Below, piece after piece: positions 10,343 through 56,958 of a DNA stretch of 64,000 bases. The stretch lies in the sequence record MZ501103, one strand, 5' to 3'. Within the stretch, counting starts at the first letter, position 1, and each line of letters opens with the position of its first letter. Under the pieces are notes generated by a model, which worked only from the letters and a program-made list of their open reading frames with translations, was not told where the DNA came from and did no database searches. A program made the translations under genes and the position numbers. Origin of the DNA: Escherichia phage SelmaRatti.

Positions 10343-10654
10343 TTATTCTTTTTCCGCCAGGCGTTTAGCTTCTTTTTCTACTTCTAATAAAACCTCACTA
10401 TTAGATAATATTTTAGTAAATGCCTTAAATAAATGAGATGTTGTTTCTAGAGTGTATGGCATACTGAATCCACTTTTTGTTGGAAACCATTCACCTTCTA
10501 TATCTTGGAGCCAGTACCTAATTCCTAAGTATAGATTCCCCCTAAACTCAGATACAGTTAGCCTAACCTGTTGGCCATCTTCTCTCTCCCAGATAACTAT
10601 GGACTGATCATCTACATGTCCAACATAATCCTGATTTACATTATCTCCTGACAT
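10343..10654 (-). CDS. hypothetical protein (103 aa)
   Basis: ORF in operon context. Confidence 0.4.
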   Translation of the reverse strand: MSGDNVNQDYVGHVDDQSIVIWEREDGQQVRLTVSEFRGNLYLGIRYWLQDIEGEWFPTKSGFSMPYTLETTSHLFKAFTKILSNSEVLLEVEKEAKRLAEKE

Positions 10655-11301
10655 TTTATTGCTCCCTGACTTAGGAGATATTCCTCTGCCTCCTCTGGTT
10701 GAATACTGAAAAACTCAGTAGAACCGTCAAATATTGACTCTGTAAATATCTGCATACTAGAAAAGAATTGATGGGCTTTATTTTCTAGGGTATATGCAGA
10801 GCCTTCATAAGAGTATACCCCATGTATACTCAGATCCACCAAATTAGAATCTTTTTTGATCTCTTGAAGTCTTCTATCTGGGTTTTTAGATGTTCCTATT
10901 TTTGTTCCTAGCTGCGGGCTATAAAATAGATACAAATAGCTTGTAGCCGCACAGATAGGGCAAGATCTTCTAGCATTTTTAATCTTATCCACGCTGCTAG
11001 CCCATCTATGCCCTTCTACACACTCGAACTCTGCTTGACTACGGGAATTAATATAGGGAGATACAAGTTTTATACCCCTACTAGCTAGCTGTTGGTTTAT
11101 TTGCTCTACAGTAAGCTTAGCTTTATTACTACAATGTGGGCAACCACTACCCTTTCTTATATTATTTAGGTAAGCTTTCCATTGGTGGCCATTTAAGCAT
11201 TTAAACATGGCTGGTGTTCTTATGTTAACCCATTCACTTACTATACTAAAGCCTCGTGACTCTAACTCTTTATTTATTTGTTTTGCTGTTAACTTTTTCA
11301 C
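10636..11301 (-). CDS. zinc-ribbon repeat + T5orf172/GIY-YIG-like domain protein (homing-endonuclease-like)
   Basis: Two repeats C..GH.W...CP.C (FKCLNGHQW...CPHC; FECVEGHRW...CPIC) and C-terminal YLYLFYSPQLGTKIGTSKNPDRRL. Confidence 0.6.
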   Translation of the reverse strand: MKKLTAKQINKELESRGFSIVSEWVNIRTPAMFKCLNGHQWKAYLNNIRKGSGCPHCSNKAKLTVEQINQQLASRGIKLVSPYINSRSQAEFECVEGHRWASSVDKIKNARRSCPICAATSYLYLFYSPQLGTKIGTSKNPDRRLQEIKKDSNLVDLSIHGVYSYEGSAYTLENKAHQFFSSMQIFTESIFDGSTEFFSIQPEEAEEYLLSQGAIKCQEIM

Positions 11302-11348
11302 TATACTTTATATACAACAAAGGAGAGCCGAAGCTCTCCTTTTCTTTA

Positions 11349-11639
11349 TTATTTTTTACCTACTGGCGTAGCTCTATCAAGTTCACTAGACAATGAAGTG
11401 ATACGTTTTACCTTATTTACCGGGATGAATCGGAAGCTATCATTAGTACGGCTAAATACTAGAATCTCGTCGTCTTTTGGTTGGCGAATACGCTCCTGGG
11501 CGAATCGTTTACTGAGATACTTATCAGAAAAGTCCATAGTACCTTGAAGATACGTAGTACCTTTTTGACGTAATTTCTCATAATGAAGGTAGAACTCGTT
11601 ATGAGCTTCACATGCGGAGATGATTTCTTGTTTATTCAT
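11349..11639 (-). CDS. hypothetical protein (96 aa)
   Basis: ORF, operon context. Confidence 0.4.
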   Translation of the reverse strand: MNKQEIISACEAHNEFYLHYEKLRQKGTTYLQGTMDFSDKYLSKRFAQERIRQPKDDEILVFSRTNDSFRFIPVNKVKRITSLSSELDRATPVGKK

Positions 11640-11654
11640 GCAAAAATCCCCTTA

Positions 11655-12065
11655 TTACTTAGTGATAGCTCGGATTGCTTCTGCCAGATGAGCAGCCGCT
11701 TTACCAGTCAGTTTGTCGATAATTGCATCATCCAGAAAATCTGGTGCTAGGCCAGCATCAGAGAATGCTGAACGAAGATCGGCATGAGCTTGGGCTTTAG
11801 AAGTGCGAGAACCACCAGAAGCTTTTTCTCCAGTAGATGCGCTAGATTTAGAAGCAGAGCCAGCAGCTTTCTTGATGTACAAACCTGCTTTAGTCAGCTT
11901 CATACGAAAACCGTTCGGAGTTACACCATTTTCCTGGGCAATTTCGCTAACAATTTCCATGCTAACACCCGGACGTTCATCCTCTGGGAATTGCTCCATA
12001 CGAGCAACGTATTCGGAAGACATTTTTTCGAACAGTTCATCAGTCCACTGAGTTGGAGTAGTCAT
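11655..12065 (-). CDS. hypothetical protein (136 aa)
   Basis: ORF, Ser/Ala-rich linker; upstream promoter. Confidence 0.45.
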   Translation of the reverse strand: MTTPTQWTDELFEKMSSEYVARMEQFPEDERPGVSMEIVSEIAQENGVTPNGFRMKLTKAGLYIKKAAGSASKSSASTGEKASGGSRTSKAQAHADLRSAFSDAGLAPDFLDDAIIDKLTGKAAAHLAEAIRAITK

Positions 12066-12122
12066 ATTTTATATTTCCTTAATTAAGAATTAAACAGAAT
12101 AGTTCTTTCAAACTATGAGAAT

Positions 12123-12151
12123 ATTATATCAAGAATTATAGGATTAAGCAA
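12123..12151 (-). promoter_or_regulatory. sigma70-type early promoter
   Basis: rc reads TTGCTT-17-TATAAT. Confidence 0.55.
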
Positions 12152-12171
12152 CTGAAATTTTTCGGTAATTG

Positions 12172-12426
12172 CTACACATCTAGTTCAACAATCTCCCAAT
12201 CGTCGGCCAGAGCCTCGTCTAGGGTAAGGTTTACTTGACGGATAAGTGGGGATTCCATACCGTTCTCCCACACATGTTCAGTCACTGTACCCTGCTCTAC
12301 GTTAAATTCTAAAACCACTGTAAAGTGTTTATTATTTTCCCAGCTATCCCGCTGGAGATATTTTACATCCCCATCTTTCAGTAAATCTGTTAGCTTACTC
12401 ACGGCGTTTTCCTTTTTCTTTATCAA
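12172..12426 (-). CDS. hypothetical protein (84 aa)
   Basis: ORF, overlaps upstream gene stop. Confidence 0.4.
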   Translation of the reverse strand: MIKKKENAVSKLTDLLKDGDVKYLQRDSWENNKHFTVVLEFNVEQGTVTEHVWENGMESPLIRQVNLTLDEALADDWEIVELDV

Positions 12427-17625: not shown

Positions 17626-18075
17626 TTACACCTTAAATTGTTGTAAGGATTTACACATTTCAATATCTGGGCTAAATTCTAGCATATAGCTAACAGCTTT
17701 TAAATCTTGAAGATTTATCCCAGTCCTACCGTTGACTATAACCGTTGGATACTGATACATCATAGCACCAGCACGCTCAATAAGGTCATCAACGTTAGTA
17801 GTCAAATTTACTACTTGACCAGGATATTTCTTATACCATTCCCCAATACGCAAGTGTGCAAGGTTAGGTTCAACAGTTTCTAGCTCTTCACGTCGCTTGT
17901 TGTAAAACATATGGGTTTTATGATAAAAGTTACCACGAAAGGCATGAATATTACATACCTCTTCTAAGTCATAATCATCCCACAATGCTTTACCACTAGC
18001 AGTATCAGTACGGAAGGCTCGTACACCACTTTCAACACTCAAACCTACACCACTGATAATAATTAATCTACGCAT
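17626..18075 (-). CDS. Sir2-like NAD-binding N-terminal domain protein (truncated, 149 aa)
   Basis: ISGVGLSVESGVRAFR...NVDDLIERAG resembles CobB/Sir2 GAGIS.ESGI..FR...QNID.LHERAG; no zinc ribbon, no catalytic His. Confidence 0.5.
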   Translation of the reverse strand: MRRLIIISGVGLSVESGVRAFRTDTASGKALWDDYDLEEVCNIHAFRGNFYHKTHMFYNKRREELETVEPNLAHLRIGEWYKKYPGQVVNLTTNVDDLIERAGAMMYQYPTVIVNGRTGINLQDLKAVSYMLEFSPDIEMCKSLQQFKV

Positions 18076-18915: not shown

Positions 18916-20742
18916 TTATTTAAGATTTAAGTGTTTTACTCTACCAAGCACTTCTTTTTGTTTCCCAGAATTGAAAGGCCTACTGCCCGGGGATCCCAGG
19001 TACCCGCAAACCCTACGTGTAACCTCTATTTCTTCAGATCCACAACCCGGACATACAAACCCACGTTCAGAAGCAACAGATTCACCCATATATCCGCAGT
19101 TGAAACACTCATCAATTGGTATATTAACACCAATATAATGGCTACATTCTAGCCCCTTATCCACCACATACTCAAGAGCTTTGTGGAACTTTTTCATTTG
19201 AGGTAGTTCCACAAATGATATATTACCACCATTAGCTATTTTGGTAAAATGAGCTTCGTACTCAAATTTAGTATCTGGGGCTACTTTCTCTCTTACGTCC
19301 AAATGGTGACTATTAGTAAGATAGCCTTTATCTGTTAACCAAGAATACTCTGGGAACCTACGTTCTAGTAATTTATTAAAACGATTACATAGAGACTCAC
19401 TAGGAGTAGCATACAAGCTAAACCCAAGATTAGTCTCATTAGCTTTAACTTCGCAACGATTTTTTAGGTGAGTGAGAACTTCCTCTGTAAATTCAATACA
19501 ATCCCTATGGGTTTGTGGTAGACCAAACATTATTTGGCACATCTCATAGACCCCAATGTATCCAAGAGATACAGAAGATCTACCCTCAAAAATAGGCCAT
19601 ACATACTCTTCCCCATCTAAACGCACACCAAAACCCCCGTGCATATAAAGAATAGGGGCTTGTTTAGCCTTCACTTTCTTAAGTCTATTTAAGAAAAAAT
19701 CATGAGCTTCAAAAGCCTCATCCACATATTTGTCCAGAATATCCCAGAAATCTTCAAAAACCCCATCTGCCTCAGCAGCAACCATAGGTAGATTAATAGA
19801 CACTACACCTAAATTATTGCGCCCTGCAATTTCTCCGGAGGGGATAGCAGATAAAAAGCTACGACAACCCATAGGTGCTTTAAAATCACCAGTAACAGCT
19901 ACAACTTTCTCGTAACTTAAATAGTCCGGGTACATACGGGTAGCAGAACACTCAAGTGCTAGCTGTTTTATATCGTAGTTAGGGTCGCCTGGATTTTTAT
20001 TTAACCCTTCTTTAACTGAGAATACTAGTTTAGGGAAGATAGGGGTTGACTCAGCAGCACCTAAACCTTTAATACGGTTTTGGAGGATGGCTTTCTGAAT
20101 CATCCTTTCCTCCCACCCCTGTCCTAGCCCAAAGCCAAGCGTAACAAAAGGAGTCTGTCCATTAGAGTTAAATAATGAATTAGTTTCATACTCTAGGGCT
20201 TGGAATGCGTCATAACACTCTTTTTCAGTAAGTTCAGTAGCATATACAGCAGCTTTCCTTTCATCCTTGAGCCAACGTAGACCACGACCCAGATGTTTAT
20301 TGTAAGACTTTCTGACATACGGGGCTAGAACCTCATCGATACGATCAATAGAGGTGCCACCATACTGAGCACCAGATACTTGGGCAATAATCTGAGCAGT
20401 GATTGCACATGCAGTAGTTATGGATTTAGGAGTTTCAATATTTGCATTACCAATTTTAGTACCATTCTTCAGCATGCTACCAAGGTCTACTAAGCAACAG
20501 TTAGTGTACCCCTGTGCTCTGTAATCCATATCATGAATGTGTATCTTACCTAGATTATGGGCGTCTAACAGGTGTTTAGGTAACTCTTGCGATACTAAAT
20601 ACTTGTTAACTTCCCCAGCTAATAAGTCTCTTTGAGTATGGAACATCTCACTAGGTTTATTAGCATTATTATGCTGTAAATCCTTATCCGCAGTTAGAGT
20701 GAGCAGACCTTTGCAATTCTCAATTAATTCATTCTCTGTCAT
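18916..20742 (-). CDS. nrdD: anaerobic ribonucleoside-triphosphate reductase
   Basis: C-terminal Cys cluster CFNCGY...CPGCG and glycyl-radical motif RRVCGYLG; 608 aa. Confidence 0.85.
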   Translation of the reverse strand: MTENELIENCKGLLTLTADKDLQHNNANKPSEMFHTQRDLLAGEVNKYLVSQELPKHLLDAHNLGKIHIHDMDYRAQGYTNCCLVDLGSMLKNGTKIGNANIETPKSITTACAITAQIIAQVSGAQYGGTSIDRIDEVLAPYVRKSYNKHLGRGLRWLKDERKAAVYATELTEKECYDAFQALEYETNSLFNSNGQTPFVTLGFGLGQGWEERMIQKAILQNRIKGLGAAESTPIFPKLVFSVKEGLNKNPGDPNYDIKQLALECSATRMYPDYLSYEKVVAVTGDFKAPMGCRSFLSAIPSGEIAGRNNLGVVSINLPMVAAEADGVFEDFWDILDKYVDEAFEAHDFFLNRLKKVKAKQAPILYMHGGFGVRLDGEEYVWPIFEGRSSVSLGYIGVYEMCQIMFGLPQTHRDCIEFTEEVLTHLKNRCEVKANETNLGFSLYATPSESLCNRFNKLLERRFPEYSWLTDKGYLTNSHHLDVREKVAPDTKFEYEAHFTKIANGGNISFVELPQMKKFHKALEYVVDKGLECSHYIGVNIPIDECFNCGYMGESVASERGFVCPGCGSEEIEVTRRVCGYLGSPGSRPFNSGKQKEVLGRVKHLNLK

Positions 20743-21634
20743 TGATTATTTCCTCGATAAACTTTATAGCTACTTTTGGTTCAATATTGAAGAATTCCGT
20801 AGCACCGTCAAAATCTTTGTACTGGCAATTCTGCTCTTTAAAGTAGTTATGGGCTAATTTTTCTATTAGAACTGCACCACTATATTCTCCAATTTCAAAT
20901 ACTTTAATTATTTCCAAATCAGTAAGGTGGCTACTAGACCTAATATGTAGAAGTCTACGCTCTGGATTGTTAGATCTACCTATTTTAACTCCGTGTGATG
21001 GGCTATGCATAACATATATCTTAGTACTTTCTAAATCTCTATAACTACAGTAAGGACAACCATTCCCTCTTAATACAGATCCTGGAGTAGCTTCCCACCT
21101 ATGCCCTGCACCACAAAGAAAGGCGGTCTTAGTATTCGCATTACTATACTCACCCACTATTCTGATATTTCTGGCAGCAAGACGATCATTTATAGTATTA
21201 ACACTAAGTTTCTGTTTATTAGCAGCACAAGATGGGCAGCCACTACCTCTATTAATTATACTATTAAGTGTAGTAGCCCACTCATGACCACAAACACACC
21301 TAAATTTAGTATTTATATCAGCACTATTTTTATAGCCGTTCAACAATGTAATACCTCTGTCCTGTAATATAGTATTAATTTTATCAATATCTAGTTTACG
21401 GCTACTAATAGAGCAAGTATGACACTTGGTCTTTCCATTCCTAATGGCGTCAAATTTAGCTGTCCATTGATGACCGTATTCGCACTGATACGTATGCCTA
21501 TACCTAGAATTTTGATATGGCTTATCCACCATAGTAAAACCACGCTCGGCTAGGCATTTATCTACTTCTTCTTGAGTTAATTTTTTCGGCATTCCACTTC
21601 TCCACAGAATTTTTACACCTATTATACTAAACAT
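20729..21634 (-). CDS. zinc-ribbon repeat + T5orf172/GIY-YIG-like domain protein (homing-endonuclease-like)
   Basis: Three C..GH.W...C..C repeats and C-terminal IYVMHSPSHGVKIGRSNNPERRL. Confidence 0.6.
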   Translation of the reverse strand: MFSIIGVKILWRSGMPKKLTQEEVDKCLAERGFTMVDKPYQNSRYRHTYQCEYGHQWTAKFDAIRNGKTKCHTCSISSRKLDIDKINTILQDRGITLLNGYKNSADINTKFRCVCGHEWATTLNSIINRGSGCPSCAANKQKLSVNTINDRLAARNIRIVGEYSNANTKTAFLCGAGHRWEATPGSVLRGNGCPYCSYRDLESTKIYVMHSPSHGVKIGRSNNPERRLLHIRSSSHLTDLEIIKVFEIGEYSGAVLIEKLAHNYFKEQNCQYKDFDGATEFFNIEPKVAIKFIEEIINDRE

Positions 21635-22872: not shown

Positions 22873-22906
22873 AGGCCTGGGTATGAAAATGCTCGGGCCT
22901 TTTCTA
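22873..22906 (+). terminator. hairpin terminator upstream of nrdA
   Basis: GC-rich imperfect stem then ttttct; shares cgggccttttctat with the 44216 terminator. Confidence 0.4.
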
Positions 22907-22987
22907 TCAGAAAATTTTATTTGCCAAATGACTGAGAATAAAGTAAACTATTTCCTAAATCCTGATAACTATAAAAAGGAAAGCCAA

Positions 22988-25900
22988 ATGAGCCATCGCA
23001 TTGAAAAAGTAATTAAACGTGACGGTACTGTAGAAGACTTTGCTCCTGAAAAACTCAATGGTTGGGCAGAGTATGGTTGCAAAACAGTTGATGTAAGTTG
23101 GTCAGCCATTACTATGGCTGCTCAAAAAACCCTACCTAAAGGGGTTGTAGATTCCGACACTCTTATGGACGCATTAATTAAAGCTGCTGAAAGTCTTATC
23201 AAAGATAACCCAGCATACGATGTGCCAGCAAAGGAATTACGTCTTGCGCAAATGCGTAAGCGCCTTTATGACTCTTTCGAACCACCTTCTCTACGCTTCT
23301 TCCATGACCACATGGTTAGCGTAGGTACATGGGAAGACATGAGTGCATGGATTACCGATGAGCAATTTGAAGCTCTGAATCAGGTTATCGACCATGATCG
23401 TGACCGTCTTTTTACTAGTGGTGGGCTGAAGCAGTTCTTTGATAAGTATTCACGTCGTAACATAGCCACTGGTGAAATTTACGAAACCCCTCAATTCGCC
23501 TATATGGGTATGGCAATGGCGATGTTATCTCAACCTAACTGGACAATTCTAGATGCAATCGATCTCTACAATGCAATGTCGCTCCACAAGATCAACGTTC
23601 CTACGCCGCCATTGGTTGGCTTGCGCTCTAGTGACCGTGGATTTGCTAGTTGCTGCCTCGTGGATTCCACTGACACATTGGATTCAATCGACACAGCAGA
23701 GCACATCGTCTTCAAAATGGTCGCAGCCAGAGCGGGAATCGGGTATCATCTTGAAAGCAGATCAATTGCTGATCCGGTGCGAAATGGGGCATTCCCGCAT
23801 TCCGGAAAACTGCCATATTATCGACACATTGACCGCTCAGTAAAGGCCAATACTCAGCAAACTCGTGGTGGTTCTGCTACAGTGTCTTATCCATACTTCG
23901 ACCCTGAAATCATTCAATTGATGCAGGTTAAGCAACAACGTGCTACAGATGAGAATAAAATCGATAAGATGGATTATTCTCTGAGCTTTAACAATCTTTT
24001 GTTAAAACGTTATCTTAAAAACGAAGATATTACGCTAATGTCATACTTCTATGCTCCAGAAGTTCATGAAGCGTTTTATAGTGATGACGAGGCTAAATTT
24101 GAAGAAATCTACGTGGCAGCGGAGAAACGTGTGGCATCTCTTACAAAAATCGACCACGAAGGAAAAACAGTTCCAGCAGCTCCTAAAGTCTCTGCAAAAG
24201 AAATCCTAGATACTTGGCTACGTATCCGAATGGAAACAGGACGTATGTACGCTCACCACATCGGGGAATCTAATCGTCACGGTAACTTTCTTGATCCAAT
24301 CCGTATGACTAACCTTTGTGTAGCTCCAGAAACAAAAATTTTAACCAAAAATGGTAACATAGAGATTATTGATTTAGTTGGTAAAGAAGTAGAGATTTGG
24401 AACGGGCAAGAATGGTCAACAGTTATCCCTGCTAAAACTGGGGAAGCTCAGGAGTTGATGAAAATCACATTCTCTGATGGATCTACTATTGAATCTACTC
24501 TTTATCATAAGTTCTACCACCAGCCCAAATATGTAAGAGAGGATCGTAGTACCTCCTTCAAACAGGGTCTAGAAGAGGTACGAGCAGTAGACTTGCAAGT
24601 AGGTATGAAAATGCCTAAATTTAGTAATCCTATTGTAGATCATGGAAATATGGTACTAAAATCTCCTTATACTAACGGTTTCTTCACTGGAGATGGAACT
24701 TATGGAAGACATGGAGAACCTAAGCTGTACTTCTATGAAAAAGGAGGCAAACTACCATTAGTGGATAAAATTGACGCAAAGATTCAGGGAAGTGGATTAC
24801 TGGACAGCACAGGTAGACTGAGTTATATTGTTAAGTCTGATTTAATGCCGAAGTATTTTGTACCTGGCCCAGAATACACTATTGATAGCCGTATCAAATG
24901 GTTAGAGGGATATTTAGATGCAGATGGCTGCATACAGAAAAATGGCACAACCCCTAGTATTGTGGTTGCTTCGGCAGAGCCTGATTTTCTAAGTAAAGTG
25001 AAGGATTTGTTACTAGAATTGGGGATTACTAGCAAGATTATTTTAGGACGCCAAGAAGGTGACTACGAGTTACCAGATGGTACTGGTAGTAGTAGTAAAC
25101 TATACCACTGCAAGGAGACTAGTAGGCTTATTGTGGGGAGTAGTGGCTTCTGGAAACTTAAAGATTTAGGACTCTCTTTGGATAAAGAGAAACTCTTAAA
25201 CCTAACACGCCCCAATAGAGACGCAACCCGTTTTGTAACTGTAACTAACGTTGAGTTTACTGGTCGTATTAGTGATACCTATTGCTTTACAGAACCTAAA
25301 TTAAACTTGGGTGTATTTAATGGCATTTTAGCTGGTAACTGTGTAGAGATTACTCAGCCTACACGCCCGTTCCACCACATCACAGAGCTGTATAAGACAA
25401 AAGAGCAGCTTGATCAAATGAAGCCGGAGGATATTGGTGAAGTATCTCTGTGTAACTTAGGTGGTGTTGTACTTGGACGCATGGAATCTCTGGCTGAGTG
25501 GGAAAAAACTTGCTACATCCTTCTGAAATTCGTTGATACAATTATTGAAATTCAGGATTATCCGTTCCCAACTATGGAATATACGGCTAAGAAACGTCGT
25601 AATGTTGGTATTGGCCTGATGAACGCAGCAGGTGCAATGGCAGCAGAAGGTCTGGCTTATGAAGGTATTGAAGCCCGTAACTGGATTCACCGTGAGGCTG
25701 AAAAACTGTCTTACTTCCTGCATAAAGCCTCTGTACGCCTAGCTAAAGAACAGGGCGCATGTGAGTGGTTTGATCGTACTAAACCATCTAAAGGAATTCT
25801 GGTAATCGACACTTACAAGAAAACTGTTGATGAACTGGTATCCGTAGGTCTAGAAATGGATTGGGAATCTCTGCGTGCAGATATTCTGAAATACGGTATG

Positions 25901-26344: not shown

Positions 26345-26352
26345 TAAAAACA

Positions 26353-26380
26353 AGGAGATCTTCGGGTCTCCTTTTTCTTT
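26353..26380 (+). terminator. rho-independent terminator after nrdA
   Basis: aggagatc-ttcg-ggtctcct then tttttcttt. Confidence 0.6.
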
Positions 26381-26390
26381 GAAATTTTAC

Positions 26391-26419
26391 TTGCTAATCG
26401 CTACCAGATTTGCTATAAT
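26391..26419 (+). promoter_or_regulatory. sigma70-type early promoter (nrdB)
   Basis: TTGCTA-17-TATAAT. Confidence 0.55.
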
Positions 26420-26450
26420 ATTCCTGAAATAGTGAGAAAGAGGAAAATCA

Positions 26451-40680: not shown

Positions 40681-40700
40681 TCTTAATAGAGGATTTCGAA

Positions 40701-40865
40701 ATGAAAGTATTTCGATTAGTAGTAAGTGATCGACGTTCTAGCAAAGATCGTTCGAAGTATACCTTAGCCCACTATGGTAAAGATGAAAAAGAAGTAATGG
40801 TGGAGTTTGGGATTAATCATCGCTACTTAGAAGTTTACTCTATTAAGGAAGTTTATCCGTATTAA
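40701..40865 (+). CDS. small hypothetical protein (54 aa)
   Basis: RBS agagga then ATG 40701; the longer ORF would start inside the preceding tRNA. Confidence 0.35.
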   Translation: MKVFRLVVSDRRSSKDRSKYTLAHYGKDEKEVMVEFGINHRYLEVYSIKEVYPY

Positions 40866-40943
40866 GGGTCGTTAGCTCAATTGGTTAGTAGCACTTGCCT
40901 TTTAAGCAATAGGTTGAAGGTTCGAGTCCTTCACTACCCACCA
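40866..40943 (+). tRNA. tRNA-Lys (anticodon TTT)
   Basis: Acceptor gggtcgt/actaccc (one mismatch), anticodon loop cttttaa, T-arm gaagg-ttcgagt-ccttc, encoded CCA. Confidence 0.6.
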
Positions 40944-40950
40944 AATTTTT

Positions 40951-41024
40951 GCTCGGTTAGTTTAATGGGAGAACCCCGTCTTTACACGGCGGTTGCGATA
41001 GTTCGATTCTATCACCGAGTACCA
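40951..41024 (+). tRNA. tRNA-Val (anticodon TAC)
   Basis: Acceptor gctcggt/accgagt, D-arm gttt/gaac, anticodon arm ccgtc-tttacac-ggcgg, T-arm gatag-ttcgatt-ctatc, encoded CCA. Confidence 0.75.
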
Positions 41025-41043
41025 ATTAACTCAAAATAAGGAA

Positions 41044-41409
41044 TTGCAAATGCAATTATCAAGCAAGATTCAAGGTTATTTCGGTCATGTGACAATGGAG
41101 TTCGCTATCTCTAAAGGTTGGGATTTCGAGCAAGATCTAGCTGAGTTCTACAAAGATATTGATCTGAACGTACCGTATATGGGACTTTCTACTGGTCAGG
41201 AGATCACAGAAGCCGATGTATTCAAGGCAAGTCAAGGTGAGATAACACCTAGTTTTGCCACTTTTTGGAGTGGCTTCACAATTAAAGAAGAAGCTCCAGA
41301 TGATGATGTATTTATGCAAAGCATGCACTCTGGGAGTTCTGATATGTTATTTGTTAAAGATGTACGACATATCCAAGAAGTGGTAAAAACGTATTTGCAA
41401 AATGCTTAA
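41044..41409 (+). CDS. hypothetical protein (121 aa)
   Basis: ORF with RBS aaggaa. Confidence 0.45.
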   Translation: MQMQLSSKIQGYFGHVTMEFAISKGWDFEQDLAEFYKDIDLNVPYMGLSTGQEITEADVFKASQGEITPSFATFWSGFTIKEEAPDDDVFMQSMHSGSSDMLFVKDVRHIQEVVKTYLQNA

Positions 41410-41423
41410 TTTCTTGTTATAAT
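41395..41423 (+). promoter_or_regulatory. sigma70-type early promoter driving unannotated RNA region
   Basis: TTGCAA-17-TATAAT then tataaattgatg. Confidence 0.5.
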
Positions 41424-41756
41424 ATTTATATAAATTGATGCGAAAATAGCTGCCTAGATACCAGGTGTATGACGTCTACACTAGCAGAGCTACCGAAAAA
41501 GAGATCCTCAGGATAAACGTCGTAGCAAAATTAGTCTGGTATCCATCAATTTAGTTCACTAAGGTATTAGCTCGACCTAGGACTGGCTGCCAAAAAGCAC
41601 GACCCCTACGACTCGGGAGAAGTTCTAGATTAGTCCACTAGATTCAGCGGCAACTGAATAGTGTATCGGGTTTGTGAAGAGCGGCTATCCTCTACTGGCT
41701 AATGTATGAGGTTAGTACGCACACCGAGCTAATAGCCTTAGTAAACTAAAGAATTT

Positions 41757-41831
41757 GGGCGAATAGTGTCAGCGGGAGCACACCAGACTTGCAATCTGGG
41801 AGGGAGGGTTCGAGCCACTCTTTGTCCACCA
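41757..41831 (+). tRNA. tRNA-Ala (anticodon TGC)
   Basis: Acceptor gggcgaa/tttgtcc (G-U pairs incl. G3-U70), anticodon arm ccaga-cttgcaa-tctgg perfect, T-loop ttcgagc, encoded CCA. Confidence 0.6.
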
Positions 41832-41955
41832 AATTAAAAAGAATGCGCGCGATTGACGGAATAGGTATACGTGTAAGCCTTAGAAGTTGAATTTTGAGGG
41901 TTCGAATCCCATCGAGGCGTAACTGCCTGGTGTGATAGAGGCATCATCTTATTAT

Positions 41956-42046
41956 TGGAAGAGCAAATCGAATTGGCGACGAAAACCGCTGGGAAAGTGG
42001 CTGACTGGTAAAACGGCTTGAGAGTTCAAATCTCTCCTCTTCCGCC
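41956..42046 (+). tRNA. type II tRNA-like gene (Leu/Ser class?), anticodon arm not resolved
   Basis: Perfect acceptor ggaagag/ctcttcc, T-arm gagag-ttcaaat-ctctc, CCA, D-loop gaattggcgac; no canonical anticodon stem found by hand. Confidence 0.35.
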
Positions 42047-42059
42047 AAACAATTTATAA

Positions 42060-42154
42060 GGTAGGTCAATCCAACGGCTGGCGATGGACTCCGACTTGAA
42101 ATCGGTTGATCGTAGTGATACGGTGTAAGGGTTCGATCCCCTTACCTACCTCCA
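42060..42154 (+). tRNA. tRNA-Ser (anticodon TGA), type II
   Basis: Acceptor ggtaggt/acctacc perfect, anticodon loop cttgaaa, variable hairpin cgta-gtga-tacg, T-arm aaggg-ttcgatc-ccctt, CCA. Confidence 0.65.
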
Positions 42155-42628
42155 AATCTTGAAGTATGCCGGAATCGGTAGACGGGGCTTCCTAAAGGGC
42201 GTAAGGGGAACATCCACTCCTCATAAGATACCCGAAAACGAGGCTGAGATAAATGGTCTATCTCGTGAAGGTTCAAGTCCTTCTGCTTCTTGATACCTCT
42301 ATGGCTCAAAGTGTAACGGTGCTATTTGATGCTCTTAGTAAGACTTTCCCGACATGCGTTCGGGGGTAAGCTGCTAAGACTAGAGTAGAAGAGTTTCGGA
42401 GAGCCGCCACAATTGAAAATTCGTACTCGTCTTGAGCTGCGTGCAATAGGAGATAACTTGATTAGTATTCTAGAACATGCTAATTGAGGAAGGTTTCTCT
42501 AACCCTGCGAGTTTTCAATTGTGGCTATATCATAATTGGTTAATGATCCTGATTGTGAATCAGGCCTTCCAAGCCTCGCTGAGTAGGGTTCGATTCCCTC
42601 TAGCAGCTCCAACTTTAAGGAAACATTT

Positions 42629-42850
42629 ATGCACGTTTTTGAGTTTAGTGATAAAAGTAACAATAAACGAGTTATTGTTATTGGAGAAACATACCGAGCT
42701 TATGAACAAACTGACGGCTCTGTTATCTTGAATGATGAGAAAGCTGGTTTCAGTTTCTATCCTGACGAACCTTATGAAGAGTTTCGTACTAAGTTTCTTT
42801 TACCAGACTGGCTAGCAGTAGCCGAGCAACGAGAATCCAAAGATGGCTGA
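42629..42850 (+). CDS. hypothetical protein (73 aa)
   Basis: RBS aaggaaa; first ORF after tRNA cluster. Confidence 0.45.
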   Translation: MHVFEFSDKSNNKRVIVIGETYRAYEQTDGSVILNDEKAGFSFYPDEPYEEFRTKFLLPDWLAVAEQRESKDG

Positions 42851-43365
42851 TAATCTAAAATTAAGGTTGACAAACAAAAGAAATACGTTGAGGTTGAATT
42901 AGGCGAATAACGCTTAAAGCTAACTTTCGAGTTTCTTCAGCAGTTGGCTATGACAGTTATGACTGATAAGTCTCCTGTTATTGAAAAAGAAATCCCGTTG
43001 AAATAATGGGATCATCGCTCTTAAAGCATTGCCGGAGATGCAACGGTCTTGTAAACCGTGGAACGGGCGTGACAGCAGGAAGTAGACTGCAACTCCATGC
43101 TATCCAGGAGTATAAATGTAGAAGCTAAGACTTTAGATAGCCATTGTCTTAGCGTGAGCAATCACGTAGTTGCAACAGACCAGGGGGATCGCAACGTTAA
43201 AATCAAAGCTCCTGTACTTATTAAACTTAATGGGACTATCAATCCACAAGCCGGACTACGAGCGATTATCGGGTATTCACTTAATAAGCAAGCCTGCCTT
43301 CCAGTTTTTATCTTGCTTCTGGGTTAACAAAAAGCTGAGCCAAATTCTAACATCAGGGAGATCTA

Positions 43366-43734
43366 ATGAAAGCGTATCAAAACCTTAAATCTGGCGTAAT
43401 TAACATTGTTCATAACAATCAGATCATTCAACTATGTTCTAAAGATGGTGAACTTAAACAGAAAGTTCTAGTCGAAGATCTAGAAGGTATCACACCTCAC
43501 TTTGACCCTGAGGCCTTTCGCATTGTAGATGTGGAAGTGATTCCTCAAATCGAGGGAGGTCAGCACCTAAATGTCAATGTGTTAAGTCGTGATCAGCTTT
43601 TGGATGCACAGAAACATCCTGAAAAATACCCTCAATTAACTATCCGTGTTTCAGGGTATGCTGTACGTTTTAACTCACTGACGCGTGAACAGCAGAACGA
43701 CGTTATTAGTCGTACATTTACTCAGGCGATGTAA
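43366..43734 (+). CDS. autonomous glycyl-radical cofactor (GrcA/YfiD-like)
   Basis: [11 protein letters not shown]...[24 protein letters not shown]...RTF matches the GrcA/PFL glycyl-radical signature. Confidence 0.8.
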
Positions 43735-44320: not shown

Positions 44321-44668
44321 ATGAGCCGTACTTATCGTAGACAATCTGGTGATCAGTGGTGGAAGTCTAAAGCTAATTACACCCAGGGATATACTTTCCT
44401 CAAAGCAAGTGGCTACTACATTCGTGTTATTTATGCTAAATCCTGGGATGAGGTAGAACAGGAAATGGAAGAAGCAACCATTAGTAATGAGAAAAAGGAT
44501 GGTTATAACTGGAATTCTGTTAGTAAGAATGTTAAGTGGCATTCTAATAAAATGGTTCGTCAAGGAAATCGTCAAGAACTCCACCGCGTGATGAAAGATC
44601 CAGAAAATTATGACTATAATCGCGATCATGACATGCGTAAGCGTGGATTATGGTGGTGCTATGATTGA
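44321..44668 (+). CDS. hypothetical protein (115 aa)
   Basis: RBS ggaggtaat; follows terminator. Confidence 0.4.
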   Translation: MSRTYRRQSGDQWWKSKANYTQGYTFLKASGYYIRVIYAKSWDEVEQEMEEATISNEKKDGYNWNSVSKNVKWHSNKMVRQGNRQELHRVMKDPENYDYNRDHDMRKRGLWWCYD

Positions 44669-45182
44669 GAACAAAATGGAAGAATGGAAAATCATCGAGA
44701 ATTTTCCATCTTATGAGGTTTCTAGCTTAGGTAGGGTTAGAAACTTAAAAACAGGAAAAATCCGAAAACCCGTAGTACATCACAGTGGATACTTACAACT
44801 AAACCTAGTAAAGAAAGATGGGTCTAAAAAGACTGTGTATATCCATAGGGTAGTGGCCTTTGCTTTCTGCAATCCTCCTAAAAACTGGAAAGAATTAACT
44901 GTCAATCATAAAGATGGAAATAAGGAAAATGTAGAGGCTACTAACCTAGAGTGGATTAGTATGTCAGATAATTTAAAACACACAAGACTTACTGGTTTAA
45001 ATCATATAGATGGTGAAATGAACGGTAGGGCTTTATTAACAGCAGAACAGGTTCTTTGGATACGGAATGTTTATATACCCAGGGACAAGGAATTTGGGCA
45101 GAAAGCCCTTGCAGAAAAATTCAATGTTAGCAAAGCCACTATAAGCCATATAATAACACGTAGGACTTGGACAGAAATTTAA
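44661..45182 (+). CDS. HNH homing endonuclease with NUMOD4-like N-terminus
   Basis: WKIIENFPSYEVSSLGRVRN then HRVVAFAF...VNHKDGNKENV.NLEW; start placed at ATGA overlap. Confidence 0.65.
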   Translation: MIENKMEEWKIIENFPSYEVSSLGRVRNLKTGKIRKPVVHHSGYLQLNLVKKDGSKKTVYIHRVVAFAFCNPPKNWKELTVNHKDGNKENVEATNLEWISMSDNLKHTRLTGLNHIDGEMNGRALLTAEQVLWIRNVYIPRDKEFGQKALAEKFNVSKATISHIITRRTWTEI

Positions 45183-45532: not shown

Positions 45533-45824
45533 GTTTATTATTGCACTGATGATCTCCGCAGTTAGTTTCGGTTCTCTGGCATCTACCAAAGTTTCTATGA
45601 AAAACGGGAATGTTAGGATACAACAGAACGGCATTATTACCGAGTATGGTAAAGTTCGTGATGTTAAAGAACGTAATGGTAAAGTAGAAATCTATACTAA
45701 TAAAAACTTCTCTACTCCAGCCGTTACTATTAGCAAACACGGTGAAATAACCACTCAACGTACTAATAGCTCCGGTTCTTTTACTTGTCGTTATGATTGC
45801 GACTTTGAAGGTGAAGATGAATAA
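45525..45824 (+). CDS. small secreted protein (signal peptide) ending ...CDFEGEDE
   Basis: RBS ggggagg; start overlaps previous stop in the motif gaagATGaaTAA. Confidence 0.45.
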   Translation: MNKFIIALMISAVSFGSLASTKVSMKNGNVRIQQNGIITEYGKVRDVKERNGKVEIYTNKNFSTPAVTISKHGEITTQRTNSSGSFTCRYDCDFEGEDE

Positions 45825-46212
45825 TTTAGACCCTAGAATTAAATTTGCTATTACAGAAATCCAAGATCAAATTGATGAGGACTTCACTGTTTGGTCAAGG
45901 TCTGGTAATGGAGAATATTGCCAGCTTTATAGCATGAAAATGGGTATCTCAATTGAGCTTAATATCAACTCTGAAGGTAGAGTAGAAGCCCAACCTATGT
46001 TTAGTATTCCAGGCTTCTCTGGATTTGTTGCAGGTATGAAATTGTGTCTACCAAATAACCATCTTCATCGAGTTATTTGTCAACTAGAGACTATTAAACA
46101 CTTCTTACCAGAAGATAACATTAATGACCACTACCATGAAGTAGTAGCAGCTCATATGATGAAAGAATGCAAACGTCGGAGAGAAGAACGTGAAAAAGCT
46201 AAACATCAATAG
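45817..46212 (+). CDS. hypothetical protein (131 aa)
   Basis: Same gaagATGaaTAA start/stop junction as previous gene. Confidence 0.45.
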   Translation: MNNLDPRIKFAITEIQDQIDEDFTVWSRSGNGEYCQLYSMKMGISIELNINSEGRVEAQPMFSIPGFSGFVAGMKLCLPNNHLHRVICQLETIKHFLPEDNINDHYHEVVAAHMMKECKRRREEREKAKHQ

Positions 46213-50160: not shown

Positions 50161-50225
50161 TAAGTAGTTTTAAGCCAGGGTTTAACGACCCTGGCTTTTC
50201 TTTTAAGAAAAATAAGGAAAAATAA

Positions 50226-50762
50226 ATGTTAACACAGAAGGAATTAAAAAGAAAGATAGAGTACAACCCAGAAACAGGAGAGTTCTTTAGGAAGCTGAAA
50301 AGTGGTAAAAAGTTAATAAATAATAGACCTAACAAAGATGGGTATATTTTAATAGGAGTTGCAGGGGGTGGAGTGCCACAACAACTAGCCCATCGATTAG
50401 CTTTCCTTTACATGACTGGAAAAATACCAAAAATCGTTGACCATATTAATAGAAATACAGGAGATAATCGTTGGTGTAATCTTAGAGACGCTACTCCACA
50501 ACAAAACAGCAGAAATAGAAAGTCTAATAATAAGTCAGGATACTTAGGTGTATTTTGGAGTAAGGTTGCACAAAAATGGCAAGTACAAGTAACTGGATCA
50601 AACGAAGAGCTAGTATACGGAGGGTTATTCGAATACTTGGAACTGGATAAAGCAGTCGAAAAAGCAAATGAGCTAAGATTACAGTACCATGGTTCTAGGG
50701 CAATGGTAGAGGTTTTCGATAATACACGACCGTTACCGCCTATTAAGGGATTAAATATGTGA
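50226..50762 (+). CDS. HNH homing endonuclease (AP2/HNH_3-like)
   Basis: GYILIGV...HRLAFLYMTGKIPKIVDHINRNTGDNRWCNLRDATPQQN. Confidence 0.7.
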   Translation: MLTQKELKRKIEYNPETGEFFRKLKSGKKLINNRPNKDGYILIGVAGGGVPQQLAHRLAFLYMTGKIPKIVDHINRNTGDNRWCNLRDATPQQNSRNRKSNNKSGYLGVFWSKVAQKWQVQVTGSNEELVYGGLFEYLELDKAVEKANELRLQYHGSRAMVEVFDNTRPLPPIKGLNM

Positions 50763-50838
50763 TCCAACCCCCGGATATAAAGTATACTTGACATTACGCA
50801 AAAAATTTTGTGCTCCAGAAGTGATCTTTAAAAACACA

Positions 50839-52527: not shown

Positions 52528-52956
52528 ATGTCTGATCGTTTCTACACTCAAATGGCTGAACATTTTCGTATACCACATTACGAGCTAAACATTGCACTCC
52601 GTGATCATGACTCTCCTGAGTACAAAAAGCTCGAAAAGAAAGCGGAAAAATCTATTGATACAAAGGTAGGTGCATCTATGTCTAAGGGCAAAAAGTTAAC
52701 TCGTCTTGATCTTAATAAAATTTTAACTGAACTTTTGGGTACTGATATTGAAGGTGCTAAATTACCGCTTCTTGTACTAGAGACTATGATTAAAAAGGTC
52801 AAAAATAAAGAGTATAAAAAGGTAGAAGTCCCAGAAGGAAGATTGAAGGCTCCTTATCAGGAAGCATTAACCGAGTGTTTGGGTGTAAATCTTGATCTGA
52901 GCACCGCAACCGTAAAAACTATGAAAAACTTCTTAGAGGCCATTAATAAATTGTGA
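52528..52956 (+). CDS. hypothetical protein (142 aa)
   Basis: Promoter 52466-52494, RBS agagagg. Confidence 0.45.
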   Translation: MSDRFYTQMAEHFRIPHYELNIALRDHDSPEYKKLEKKAEKSIDTKVGASMSKGKKLTRLDLNKILTELLGTDIEGAKLPLLVLETMIKKVKNKEYKKVEVPEGRLKAPYQEALTECLGVNLDLSTATVKTMKNFLEAINKL

Positions 52957-53459
52957 TTACTATGGAAAGATTATTAGAGGTACTAGAATATCATGAAGAT
53001 GGTACTCTAACCTGGAAACCTAGACCGGAAGGTACAAGAGGTTGGAATACTAGCCTTAACAATATGCCTGCTGGGTCTATTAATGCTGATGGCTATCTAA
53101 TGCTCTCTATTGATGGAGAACGAATACTTGCGCATAGAGCAATCTTCTTTATGCACAAAGGCTATTTACCTGATATAGTAGATCATGATGATACCAATAC
53201 GCTAAACAATCGTATTGGTAACTTAATAGAAGCTACAAAAGCTCAAAATGCTTTTAATAGGAAATCGGCTAATAAAAATAACCTATTGGGATTAAAAAAC
53301 ATATCTCAAAGAGGGAAGTCTTTTAGAGTAAAAATCTCTAGGGCAGGAATCAATTATATGAAAACGTGCAGTTCTTTGGAAGAAGCAATTGCATGGAGAG
53401 ATAAAAAACTAGAAGAACTCCACGGTGAGTTTGCCAGCAAAGGAAATAAAAATGTCTAA
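52953..53459 (+). CDS. HNH homing endonuclease (AP2/HNH_3-like)
   Basis: GYLMLSI...HRAIFFMHKGYLPDIVDHDDTNTLNNRIGNL. Confidence 0.7.
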   Translation: MITMERLLEVLEYHEDGTLTWKPRPEGTRGWNTSLNNMPAGSINADGYLMLSIDGERILAHRAIFFMHKGYLPDIVDHDDTNTLNNRIGNLIEATKAQNAFNRKSANKNNLLGLKNISQRGKSFRVKISRAGINYMKTCSSLEEAIAWRDKKLEELHGEFASKGNKNV

Positions 53460-55472: not shown

Positions 55473-55580
55473 GTATATAGCTGAGGTTATTATTAAACGA
55501 ATTATACAGGCGATAGCAATACTTATAATCATTTGTATTGCTATTGGCACAGGATTAGGCATTTTAATTGAAAGTTTTAT

Positions 55581-55609
55581 TTGCTAAAATGCCTAAGTTT
55601 CTGTATAAT
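55581..55609 (+). promoter_or_regulatory. sigma70-type early promoter
   Basis: TTGCTA-17-TATAAT. Confidence 0.55.
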
Positions 55610-55639
55610 TACTTTATAAATTGATGAGAAGGAATCAAA

Positions 55640-56071
55640 ATGAACAAAGTTGATAAAGCTCTAGTTTTCGCAGCAGCAGATAAGTTTGAACAAGTTAAGG
55701 CAACTTTCCGAACCTTGTTCCAGTCTTACGTTCAGGATAAGTCTAATCCTATCTCTGAACGTTTGATGGTCTGGGAATGTCATGCATGCAATGCCTTATT
55801 AATTGCTGATTATCGTAGCGATATAGATAAAGATCTGTGCGAAATTCTTATCGCTGAGGAGGCAGAACGTTATCAGTTAATCTCTTTCCAAGATTTGGCA
55901 GAGCATATCATTCCCGATGATCTTTGGGATAAATACTATGGTGATCCTGAAGATGAAGGAATGACTCCAGAAGCATGCATTGAGCTGATCTGCAAAGATC
56001 ATCCTGAAATTGCAGAGAAATTTGAAAAAGTTTTTGCTTCTGAGTTCTCCGGCGTTGTTAACGATTGGTAA
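55640..56071 (+). CDS. hypothetical acidic protein (143 aa)
   Basis: Promoter 55581-55609. Confidence 0.45.
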   Translation: MNKVDKALVFAAADKFEQVKATFRTLFQSYVQDKSNPISERLMVWECHACNALLIADYRSDIDKDLCEILIAEEAERYQLISFQDLAEHIIPDDLWDKYYGDPEDEGMTPEACIELICKDHPEIAEKFEKVFASEFSGVVNDW

Positions 56072-56089
56072 GTAATTAAAAAATTCAGT

Positions 56090-56118
56090 TGCTTTAAGCC
56101 TTAAAATTCTGTATAATA
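56090..56118 (+). promoter_or_regulatory. sigma70-type early promoter
   Basis: TTGCTT-17-TATAAT. Confidence 0.55.
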
Positions 56119-56131
56119 AGTTCATAAATTA

Positions 56132-56425
56132 ATGAGAGAGGAAATTCTAATGGAAAACATGACTAAAGACTTCGACGCCTCTAACCTTACCAAGACTGAA
56201 ATGGCCAATGTATTAGCAATTCTTCTCGACATGCAAGGATTTGAGGGGCAACTGATGAAAATGTCCATCCCAGCAATGAAAAAGATGTATGATTCTCTTA
56301 ATAAGAACGCTATGGCCTTTAACTTAGCGAAACAAGAGGCACGATTTGCTAAAGAGCATCAAGCAGTGGCAGAACGCCGAGCAGCTAGCTTTGAGCGTGA
56401 AGTCAAGCAATTAAAGAAAAAATGA
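56132..56425 (+). CDS. hypothetical protein (97 aa)
   Basis: Promoter 56090-56118. Confidence 0.45.
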   Translation: MREEILMENMTKDFDASNLTKTEMANVLAILLDMQGFEGQLMKMSIPAMKKMYDSLNKNAMAFNLAKQEARFAKEHQAVAERRAASFEREVKQLKKK

Positions 56426-56958
56426 TAACACAAGAAAGATTAAAAGAGCTATTTGAATACCGCCAGGAAACGGGCGAGTTTATAAGGAAAGTCAGTAGAG
56501 GGCGAGGTAAAGCAGGTAGTATTGCTGGTAGTCCTGATAAGGATGGTTATATATTTATTGGAATAAATAGAAAAAGATATGCAGCCCATAGATTAGCCTT
56601 TTTGTATATGGAGGGGTATATTCCAAATCTAGTACACCACTTAAATAATATAAGAAAAGATAATAGATGGTGTAATTTAAAAGATTGTACGTCCCAAGAG
56701 AATAATCGTAGCAAAATCGCTCAATCTAATTCGGGGTACTTAGGAATTACTTGGAAAAAAGATAGACAACAATGGAGAGTCCAGGTCAGAAGCGCCGAAA
56801 GTATTACAGTACACGGAGGCTACTTTAGGTATCTAGATTTAGAGTTGGCAGTTCAAAGAGCTAATGAACTACGTTTAGAACTACATGGGGCTAACGCTGT
56901 TATAGAAACTTTTGATCATACAAAACCCTTACCTACTTTAGAGGAATTAAATAAATGA
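56422..56958 (+). CDS. HNH homing endonuclease (AP2/HNH_3-like), paralog of 50226-50762
   Basis: GYIFIGI...HRLAFLYMEGYIPNLVHHLNNIRKDNRWCNL; both ends align with the 50226 product. Confidence 0.7.
   Translation: MITQERLKELFEYRQETGEFIRKVSRGRGKAGSIAGSPDKDGYIFIGINRKRYAAHRLAFLYMEGYIPNLVHHLNNIRKDNRWCNLKDCTSQENNRSKIAQSNSGYLGITWKKDRQQWRVQVRSAESITVHGGYFRYLDLELAVQRANELRLELHGANAVIETFDHTKPLPTLEELNK

Follow-up and report, generated by a model that had tools for sequence, protein, structure and literature searches.

Twelve nuclease elements, probably spread by homing, in the early-gene region of Escherichia phage SelmaRatti, with a candidate group of PD-(D/E)XK endonucleases in phage tRNA genes

The syntenic genomes of T5-like phages differ from one another mainly through homing endonuclease genes (HEGs), such as those of the T5 F-Tfl HNH enzymes (BF23 paper, PMC10644984), and the paper on the BASEL collection speaks of an "infestation with homing endonucleases" and annotates introns and inteins (PMC8594841). 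HEGs of the T5orf172 type, which carry CapR-type zinc-finger repeats, have expanded within specific phage lineages, the T5-like phages forming one clade of the tree (PMC10448857); these genes often lie beside nrd genes, and LAGLIDADG inteins of phage NrdA have been reported (Barth 2023, PMC10448857). To phage tRNA clusters, only HNH enzymes and the GIY-YIG enzyme SegB have been linked in the literature searched (PMC2330249, PMC6409571, PMC13096335), and SegB of T4 drives the inheritance or amplification of neighbouring tRNA genes (PMC2330249, PMC13096335). The homologues of I-Ssp6803I, a homing endonuclease from the tRNA-fMet group I intron of Synechocystis, have been described as mainly cyanobacterial (PMC3384342). 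In the present study, the nuclease elements were analysed in a 64,000-nt stretch (hereafter, the window) of Escherichia phage SelmaRatti (MZ501103; Bas34 of the BASEL collection), a T5-like phage of the Demerecviridae, Markadamsvirinae. The window is the early-gene region of this phage, and an earlier note, made from the letters alone, had proposed a very high density of homing-endonuclease-like genes in it. The HEG mosaic of T5-like phages is already known, and the genome has been published and largely annotated; in its GenBank record, the name "putative homing endonuclease" has already been given to four of the nine free-standing genes, and four of the twelve elements described below are still "hypothetical" or mislabelled.

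Twelve elements of six structural classes were found, which together make up 8,121 nt or 12.7% of the window (Table 1): four free-standing HNH genes, one HNH module fused in frame to a host gene, one I-TevI-like GIY-YIG gene, three zinc-finger/T5orf172 genes, one I-Ssp6803I-like PD-(D/E)XK gene and two LAGLIDADG inteins. The open reading frames (ORFs) of all twelve are full length with intact catalytic motifs, and it is very probable that these are selfish nuclease elements whose spread by homing has given SelmaRatti its combination. The earlier inventory was incomplete, since it missed the PD-(D/E)XK gene; in all nine genes that it listed, the Pfam domains claimed score above their gathering cut-offs. 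The GIY-YIG gene was confirmed by its Pfam domains and by alignment with I-TevI, in which the catalytic residues are conserved. The three T5orf172 genes, identified by their Pfam domains, are indeed paralogous (mutual identity, 33-39%), and both inteins are real, the one in the DNA polymerase lying outside the range that had been given. HNH_3 is present in all five supposed HNH genes, but the one at 34172 is fused in frame and not free-standing. With respect to density, the window has nine free-standing HNH, GIY-YIG and T5orf172 genes; for the corresponding syntenic stretch of 27 relatives, the median is 3, the mean 3.85 and the range 0-14, and these counts for relatives are lower bounds because a limited protein panel was used. 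At least nine such genes are present in 4 of the 27 relatives; T5 has eight, and chee24 and NBSal003 have none. Thus, the density is high for the family and above its median, but lies inside the family range and is no outlier.

Table 1. Nuclease elements of the window, with their insertion sites and their presence in relatives, and the two halves of the DNA ligase (a slash within a motif marks the intein boundary; RBS, ribosome-binding site; aa, amino acids)
Feature	Positions	Strand	Identification	Insert	Occupancy in relatives
LAGLIDADG intein in DNA polymerase, aa 314-672 of the 1214-aa ORF 1142-4786	2771-3847	-	Pfam, alignment		7/437 related GenBank records (430/437 without)
Zinc-finger (DUF4379/CapR) + T5orf172 gene	10636-11301	-	Pfam; PHROG "endonuclease" 5e-50	10640-11418, replaces 131 nt; empty site 56-59 nt	3/28 IMG/VR genomes
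Zinc-finger x3 + T5orf172 gene between nrdD and phoH	20729-21634	-	Pfam		orthologue in 5/27 genomes; 44-48% paralogue at the same site in 3; empty in 17
LAGLIDADG intein in NrdA, aa 479-819, at NLC/VE active-site motif	24317-25339	+	Pfam, alignment		4/440 related GenBank records (436/440 without)
I-TevI-like GIY-YIG gene between thyA and its terminator	28956-29729	+	Pfam GIY-YIG, NUMOD3, I-TevI zinc-finger/DNA-binding		only SP01 and Gostya9 among sampled records
HNH-AP2 module fused in frame to cREC_REC gene	34172-34684 (whole ORF 34172-34993)	+	Pfam HNH_3 E 5.5e-11, cREC_REC		27/439 related GenBank records
Zinc-finger + T5orf172 gene	35467-36156	+	Pfam	35463-36170, replaces 79 nt (promoter, RBS and 6 codons of next gene)	0/27 IMG/VR genomes; 5/440 GenBank records including BF23
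I-Ssp6803I-like PD-(D/E)XK gene in tRNA-Ser(GCU), 123 aa	38652-39023	+	Pfam PF11645 7e-20, PDB 2OST 1.9e-7	imported module ~38565-39070	0/435 related GenBank records
NUMOD4 + HNH gene	44661-45182	+	Pfam HNH_3	44665-45174, 510 nt, exactly at ATGA of upstream gene; empty site 79 nt	10/436 related GenBank records
HNH-AP2 gene between Clp protease terminator and holin promoter	50226-50762	+	Pfam HNH_3 E 3.5e-14; I-HmuI match (PDB 1U3E)	50214-50778, 565 nt, brings own RBS	0/28 IMG/VR genomes; 3/439 GenBank records
HNH-AP2 gene between T5.038 and thioredoxin	52953-53459	+	Pfam HNH_3 E 1.3e-12	52950-53444, 495 nt	16/286 records
HNH-AP2 gene between T5.032 and T5.030	56422-56958	+	Pfam HNH_3 E 5.4e-11	56411-56949	orthologue of at least 96% in 6/28 IMG/VR genomes; 66-72% variants in 4/28
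Ligase half, adenylation + OB domains	9033-10004
Ligase half, HhH + BRCT domains	8051-8833

The relatives were sampled as about 28 T5-like genomes of IMG/VR, each taken as four anchored 20-kb segments, and as about 440 related GenBank records, with each HEG and its flanks as the query; SP01, HildyBeyeler, T5 and smaug were the annotated genomes used for comparison. Domain identity, intact catalytic motifs, presence or absence at every site and divergent flanking alleles were directly observed. Every element is a minority allele, present in 0-6% of the GenBank records or in 3-6 of the IMG/VR genomes; the relatives show clean empty sites, and the full set is found in no relative. Minority alleles together with clean empty sites indicate that the elements are mobile HEGs. 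The synteny comparison with relatives lacking the elements, as suggested in the earlier note, defined the insertion sites to the base and recovered the empty alleles. No site had a gene content identical across the relatives, and the catalytic residues were conserved on alignment. The insertion sites that had been placed between conserved genes were confirmed for thyA/rnh, nrdD/phoH and Clp protease/holin, to which T5.038/thioredoxin can be added.

The junctions are precise to the base and are found where a stop and a start overlap or in the gap separating a terminator from a promoter, and several sites carry different nucleases across phages (two T5orf172 types between nrdD and phoH, two HNH types between T5.038 and thioredoxin, and hegE versus orf45793). 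The host alleles beside the inserts are divergent, with protein identities of 54% for thyA and 52% for cREC and a DNA identity of 85% for tRNA-Ser. On the right side of the inserts, the identity to the empty alleles is 0.58 within 0-50 nt and reaches 0.83 at 400-800 nt, such a rise with distance being observed at nine of ten sites, and shortened orthologues of the HEGs are present in other phages. These junctions, divergent neighbours, flank gradient and shortened orthologues fit a cycle of HEG invasion, co-conversion and decay. Herein, we propose that, in a co-infection by two related phages, each endonuclease would cut the element-less allele near its own gene's site, and the break would be repaired by recombination from the element-bearing genome, with the nuclease gene and neighbouring sequence being copied. 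For the free-standing genes this would be intronless homing and for the inteins intein homing, and repeated invasion, decay and loss would leave each phage with its own combination of elements.

The HNH genes resemble the heg genes of T5 (hegA-hegI; F-TflI, II, IV and others, HNH) in their architectures of HNH_3 with AP2 or NUMOD4 and in their identity of 45-56% to hegE/hegF. Unlike in T5, none of them lies at a T5 heg site, the hegA, C, D, E, F, H and I sites being empty or otherwise occupied in the window. The five proteins score 29.2-52.6 bits for HNH_3 (Pfam gathering cut-off, 24.8); in the alignment, the five keep the catalytic His (H75 of I-HmuI) and the metal-binding or structural Asn residues (N87, N96). 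The His and an Asn-Leu do not vary, each protein has an equivalent of N96, and the preceding residue is D, D, D, N or H. All five genes are sporadically present at defined sites among close relatives. The gene at 44661 probably starts there, as in the earlier note; the longer ORF from 44610 falls inside the upstream gene. The stop codon of the gene at 52953 comes from host sequence overlapping the thioredoxin ATG, and another HNH gene (29-37% identity) is found at the same site in six genomes; shortened versions of the gene at 56422 are present in other phages. The genes at 50226 and 56422 had been considered close paralogs that suggested recent duplication or mobility. They are each other's best paralogue and belong to the same subfamily, but the proteins are 50% identical and no DNA match is obtained by blastn, which rules out a recent duplication. 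As each has orthologues of 92-97% identity at its own site in other phages, the two arrived separately.

A different arrangement was observed at 34172, where the promoter, RBS and ATG belong to the T5.084-type cREC_REC gene and the upstream region is near-identical to T5 and SP01 (96-99% within 800 nt). Directly after the shared ATG, a complete HNH-AP2 module of 170 codons follows, which runs in frame into the cREC domain at Thr172. The frame of this fusion is intact in four distinct alleles, and the HNH part, with 33 synonymous versus 11 non-synonymous differences, is under purifying selection.

The GIY-YIG protein is similar to I-TevI of the T4 td intron along its full length, covering the catalytic and the DNA-binding domains, and its gene adjoins a thymidylate synthase gene, the target gene of I-TevI. 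The protein also has the zinc-finger linker and the C-terminal HTH DNA-binding domain expected of this type. Matches in the PDB were obtained with the I-TevI catalytic domain (8e-9) and the DNA-binding domain 1I3J (E 1.7e-8 over aa 126-252); in Pfam, NUMOD3 was above the threshold, and I-TevI_ZnF and I-TevI_DNA-bd were under the gathering threshold. In comparison with 1MK0/1LN0, the GIY and YIG motifs and the equivalents of Arg27, His31, His40, Glu75 and Asn90 are conserved (seven core residues: Y, Y, R, H, H, E, N). Unlike I-TevI, the gene is free-standing and has no group I intron, and it belongs with the free-standing, Seg-like members because no intron was found by Rfam in the window and the ORF lies between thyA and the terminator. 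The start codon overlaps the thyA stop as ATGA, and the TAA stands where the thy stop of T5 lies. The approximately 78 nt after the gene were considered as a leftover 3' end of thyA; this was ruled out, as they are the thyA terminator and the next promoter. The thyA gene (28126-28959) is 99% identical to that of SP01 and has 54% protein identity to those of T5 and HildyBeyeler, and nrdD (18916-20742 region) is 98-99% identical to SP01 and HildyBeyeler and 57% to T5. Whole-gene allele replacement has thus taken place beside HEG sites. Between the GIY-YIG gene and rnh lies an acidic 169-aa ORF (29832-30341; 37 D+E, 15 K+R) with no match in Pfam or PHROG, for which the sole homologue cluster among 5.8 billion proteins belongs to a few T5-like phages (Kenya-K38, Gostya9). 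This ORF may be cargo moving with the HEG, or it may be an anti-defence or DNA-mimic candidate.

In the three zinc-finger/T5orf172 proteins, T5orf172/MUG113 is combined with CapR and the DUF4379 zinc finger; the zinc finger is repeated two or three times, and blastp detects internal repeats. The T5orf172/MUG113 domain, which belongs to the GIY-YIG clan, lies at the C-terminus and scores 29.3-41.6 bits (cut-off, 20), and the motifs Y-x-Y, KIG, RR and TE[FY]F are visible in all three sequences. With their two to three zinc-finger repeats, C-terminal T5orf172 domain, nrd-adjacent location and sporadic presence, these genes are the same as the T5orf172 HEGs of ICP1 and T5-like phages (Barth et al. 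2023); there is no substantive difference, and the window offers new combinations of site and allele. At the site of the gene at 20729, HildyBeyeler has a remnant of 23% only, and shortened members of the cluster exist elsewhere.

For the inteins, Pfam found LAGLIDADG_2 and Intein_splicing within DNA_pol_A, and LAGLIDADG_3 within Ribonuc_red_lgC. The polymerase intein, delimited by alignment with the intein-less polymerase of SP01, runs from CLTHDS to VVHN/C (junction residues C314 and HN672/C673) and contains the motifs LFGDGAL and WYQDAGTL; the NrdA intein runs from CVAPET to LAGN/C (C479 and GN819/C820) and contains FFTGDGTY and YLDADGCI. Both have an N-terminal Cys, a C-terminal Asn, a Cys at +1, two acidic LAGLIDADG motifs and intein-less relatives, and like the known LAGLIDADG inteins of phage NrdA and polymerase they are inserted in catalytic motifs. 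Unlike the usual inteins, the NrdA intein ends in Gly-Asn and not in His-Asn, and the intein-less polymerase allele has Ala, not Cys, at +1. At the nrd locus (22883-27596), the two intein-bearing genomes of the IMG/VR sample (the window and SP3) are without an HNH gene of the hegH type between nrdA and nrdB; such a gene is present in 13 intein-less relatives, and neither element in 12. The intein and the hegH-type gene may be mutually exclusive, although the numbers are small.

The PD-(D/E)XK gene at 38652 shares with I-Ssp6803I the PF11645 domain (71.9 bits; cut-off, 26.1), 26% identity, the D..QxK site, a template modelling (TM) score of 0.76 and the association with a tRNA gene. Its YDLIVD...VQVK aligns with YDLVFD...VQVK of I-Ssp6803I; across 27 homologues, the D, Q and V columns are (nearly) invariant, and the Lys shows only when the protein is aligned pairwise with I-Ssp6803I. 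An AlphaFold2 model reached a predicted local distance difference test value (pLDDT) of 87.6, and its top four Foldseek matches are 2OST chains (TM, 0.70-0.78). Unlike I-Ssp6803I, this gene is phage-encoded and free-standing, with no group I intron found by Rfam in the window or in 20 homologue loci, and it lies not in an anticodon-loop intron but at the 5' end of tRNA-Ser(GCU), in the region of the D-arm, where 15 nt are duplicated. All T5-like relatives are homologous to the window up to 38563/4 and again from 39026, exactly base 1 of tRNA-Ser(GCU), onwards; positions 38582-38650 consist of a diverged copy of promoter P15b of T5 and, behind it, nt 1-15 of the tRNA. This 15-mer, GGAAGAATACGTTAA, is present in the window only at 38636-38650 and 39026-39040 (chance expectation, ~1e-6 within 500 nt). 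From the homology breakpoints and the repeat it follows that the ORF lies within tRNA-Ser, behind nt 15, and that the 5' end of the tRNA is present twice. The first 9 nt and the 3' half of the tRNA-Ser match the T5 allele, and the D-arm and anticodon stem differ with compensatory changes (D-arm: GCATAACGGTATTGC in tRNA-Ser3 of T5 versus CGTTAAAAGGTAAACG in SelmaRatti), which looks like a co-conversion tract ending inside the tRNA. The duplication and the replaced D-arm/anticodon-stem allele suggest that the enzyme would cleave an element-less tRNA-Ser allele.

The closest homologue (79% identity), on the metagenomic contig L147, has only one block of 572 nt in common with the window (38562-39117); this block is the promoter-ORF-tRNA-Ser module, and it begins where the T5-like homology stops. 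The phage homologue loci (34-79% identity) lie in tRNA clusters in 70 of 72 cases, always on the tRNA strand, and a tRNA starts between -60 and +30 nt from the stop codon at 33 of 57 non-identical loci versus 89 of 478 control ORFs of the same loci (Fisher P = 1.1e-9). Among the seven distinct loci with at least 49% identity to the protein of the window, tRNA-Ser(GCU) directly abuts the gene in five; tRNA-Trp abuts it at another (L151-153), with tRNA-Ser(GCU) next, and tRNA-Glu at the last (L157). The more distant homologues are mostly abutted by tRNA-Tyr, and the identity of the adjoining tRNA tends to go with the protein clade. In 33 loci, a 5' tRNA duplication was sought upstream of other PD-(D/E)XK genes and no exact repeat of at least 9 nt was found; only a degenerate remnant of 8 nt is present in L147. 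Like SegB of T4, the gene is a free-standing HEG in a phage tRNA cluster, but SegB has the GIY-YIG fold. No description of the tRNA-cluster association of phage PD-(D/E)XK homologues was found in the literature searched. We hypothesize that the gene belongs to an undescribed group of free-standing homing endonucleases of the I-Ssp6803I family specialised in phage tRNA genes, a proposal that could equally well prove right or wrong.

The same locus differs from that of the relatives in other respects. T5.076 (Toprim-like, annotated "DNA primase"; L001 27152-27670, L003 22780-23298), which in relatives lies between the lipoprotein gene and tRNA-Ser, is absent from 38513-38651 of the window, and the interval from the lipoprotein gene to T5.074 varies from 939 to 3460 nt among relatives. 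The tRNA region (36881-43400) is short, with 10 tRNAs called by ARAGORN versus 23-25 annotated in T5 and HildyBeyeler. Rfam gives 11 tRNA matches, of which 36881-36952 and 40598-40674 were not called by ARAGORN, and misses tRNA-Ser(TGA) at 42060-42154.

Several observations weigh against the spread of all twelve elements by homing. Cleavage, target sites and homing are inferred for every one of them, and the flank-divergence gradient is descriptive, with a sign test only. When the best-matching relative was scored in 200-nt bins across the window, its 118 switches were not enriched at HEG edges (30 observed versus 34.5 expected, P = 0.83); this gives no support either way, because the genome is mosaic everywhere and the method is too noisy. 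In addition, the fusion at 34172 (27 records, 96-98% identity) is stably inherited and could have gained a host function. An alternative is that the nucleases are kept for the benefit of the phage, by excluding rival phages or satellites or by amplifying anti-defence loci such as tRNA genes, homing being secondary. There are precedents in SegB of T4 and T6, which amplifies tRNA-Tyr and thereby escapes Septu (PMC13096335), and in the T5orf172 genes of ICP1 co-opted against satellites (PMC10448857); the PD-(D/E)XK gene abutting tRNA genes and the purifying selection on the HNH part of the fusion point in the same direction. However, each element is missing from 94-100% of close relatives, all of them viable phages, and shortened copies are common. 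We regard this explanation as rather unlikely, and it would be compatible with homing and not exclusive of it. That most of the genes are inactive relics of past invasions, with no DNA cutting now, would agree with the life-cycle theory of HEGs, which predicts decay after fixation, and with the shortened orthologues in other phages. Against such decay, all twelve ORFs of the window are full length with intact catalytic motifs, no fragments were found by tblastn with a panel of 104 proteins, and synonymous exceed non-synonymous changes in the sole case tested, the HNH part of 34172; the relic explanation is quite improbable.

Two further alternatives concern single elements. For the PD-(D/E)XK protein, a role in tRNA or RNA processing, repair or anti-defence in place of homing would explain the position of 70 of 72 homologue loci in tRNA clusters and on the tRNA strand, and the fold is also found in tRNA-splicing endonucleases (PMC3424549). 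Nevertheless, by sequence as well as by structure, the protein is nearest to I-Ssp6803I, a DNA homing endonuclease in which the D..QxK site is the same. The gene occurs in 1 of ~436 T5-like genomes, has at its flanks a target duplication of 15 nt and a tRNA allele that was replaced in part, and belongs to a promoter-ORF-tRNA module common to an otherwise unrelated contig. These are the signatures of a mobile element, and an RNA role without homing seems unlikely. As for the fusion at 34172, GenBank labels it an "intein-containing hypothetical protein" in SelmaRatti and HildyBeyeler, and an insertion in frame followed by Thr at +1 is in accordance with a true intein that splices or cleaves out of the cREC protein. 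Yet Pfam detects no Hint/intein domain, the insert starts with Gly-Lys and not Cys or Ser and ends in Lys-Gln without His-Asn, and the N-extein would be just 1-2 residues long. Moreover, its 170 residues can be aligned over their whole length with free-standing HNH-AP2 endonucleases, which leaves no room for a splicing domain. The motif and domain tests thus rule out the intein, to which we give almost no credence, and the "intein" label of this protein in the BASEL genomes is probably wrong.

Further candidates and neighbouring genes were noted in the window. In the tblastn search with the 104 HEG proteins from relatives, no additional copies or fragments were found except for a zinc-finger-only ORF (59028-59570). 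This conserved 180-aa ORF (phrog_4605) matches weakly, and only to the zinc-finger DNA-binding part of T5orf172 "endonuclease" PHROGs; it has no nuclease domain and could have derived from the DNA-binding module of an HEG, as a CapR-like protein that lacks the nuclease. The 139-aa gene orf45793 (45793-46212) was rejected as a degenerate HEG, being a conserved gene (phrog_5486) of most relatives that alternates with hegE; T5, NR01 and an H8-like phage have hegE in this slot, which in three relatives measures only 16 nt. SP01 carries a "homing endonuclease" gene (L005 4959-6697) between the primase gene and a helicase ORF of 402 aa versus 507 aa in the window, suggesting that an HEG entered the helicase gene at or within its 5' end. 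The window also encodes DNA polymerase, primase, helicase, a split NAD-dependent ligase, nrdD, phoH, nrdA/B, frd, thyA, rnh, a tRNA cluster, spanins, dNMP kinase, Clp protease, holin and endolysin. The ligase is divided into two genes, as in T5, with a gap of 199 nt, and smaug has a small ORF in the corresponding gap. The Sir2-like gene at 17626-18075 is an apparent deletion fusion, in which residues 1-104 match the N-terminus of a T5.102-type Sir2 and residues 98-149 the C-terminus of a T5.105-type protein, with approximately 1 kb of T5 missing. In a megablast search with 22000-46000, the 589 phage records matched were mostly Tequintavirus/Epseptimavirus of Salmonella and Escherichia, and the best had ~93% identity at a query coverage of only 72-77%. 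Of ten protein sequences of the window, nine matched SelmaRatti proteins exactly.

For the HEG mosaic itself, little changes: a known mosaic has been documented site by site. The present study adds base-level insertion maps and occupancy frequencies and rejects both a recent duplication and the GenBank "intein" label, and the HEG sites should be masked in phylogenies of the Markadamsvirinae. One moderately novel lead is the tRNA-gene-associated family of free-standing PD-(D/E)XK endonucleases. Phage tRNA arrays counteract bacterial defences that cleave tRNA. If the proposal is true, the PD-(D/E)XK enzymes would cut element-less tRNA alleles, spread together with tRNA alleles and shuffle these anti-defence arrays, and a family of restriction fold tied to tRNA genes would add a second driver of the turnover of tRNA arrays, structurally unrelated to SegB.

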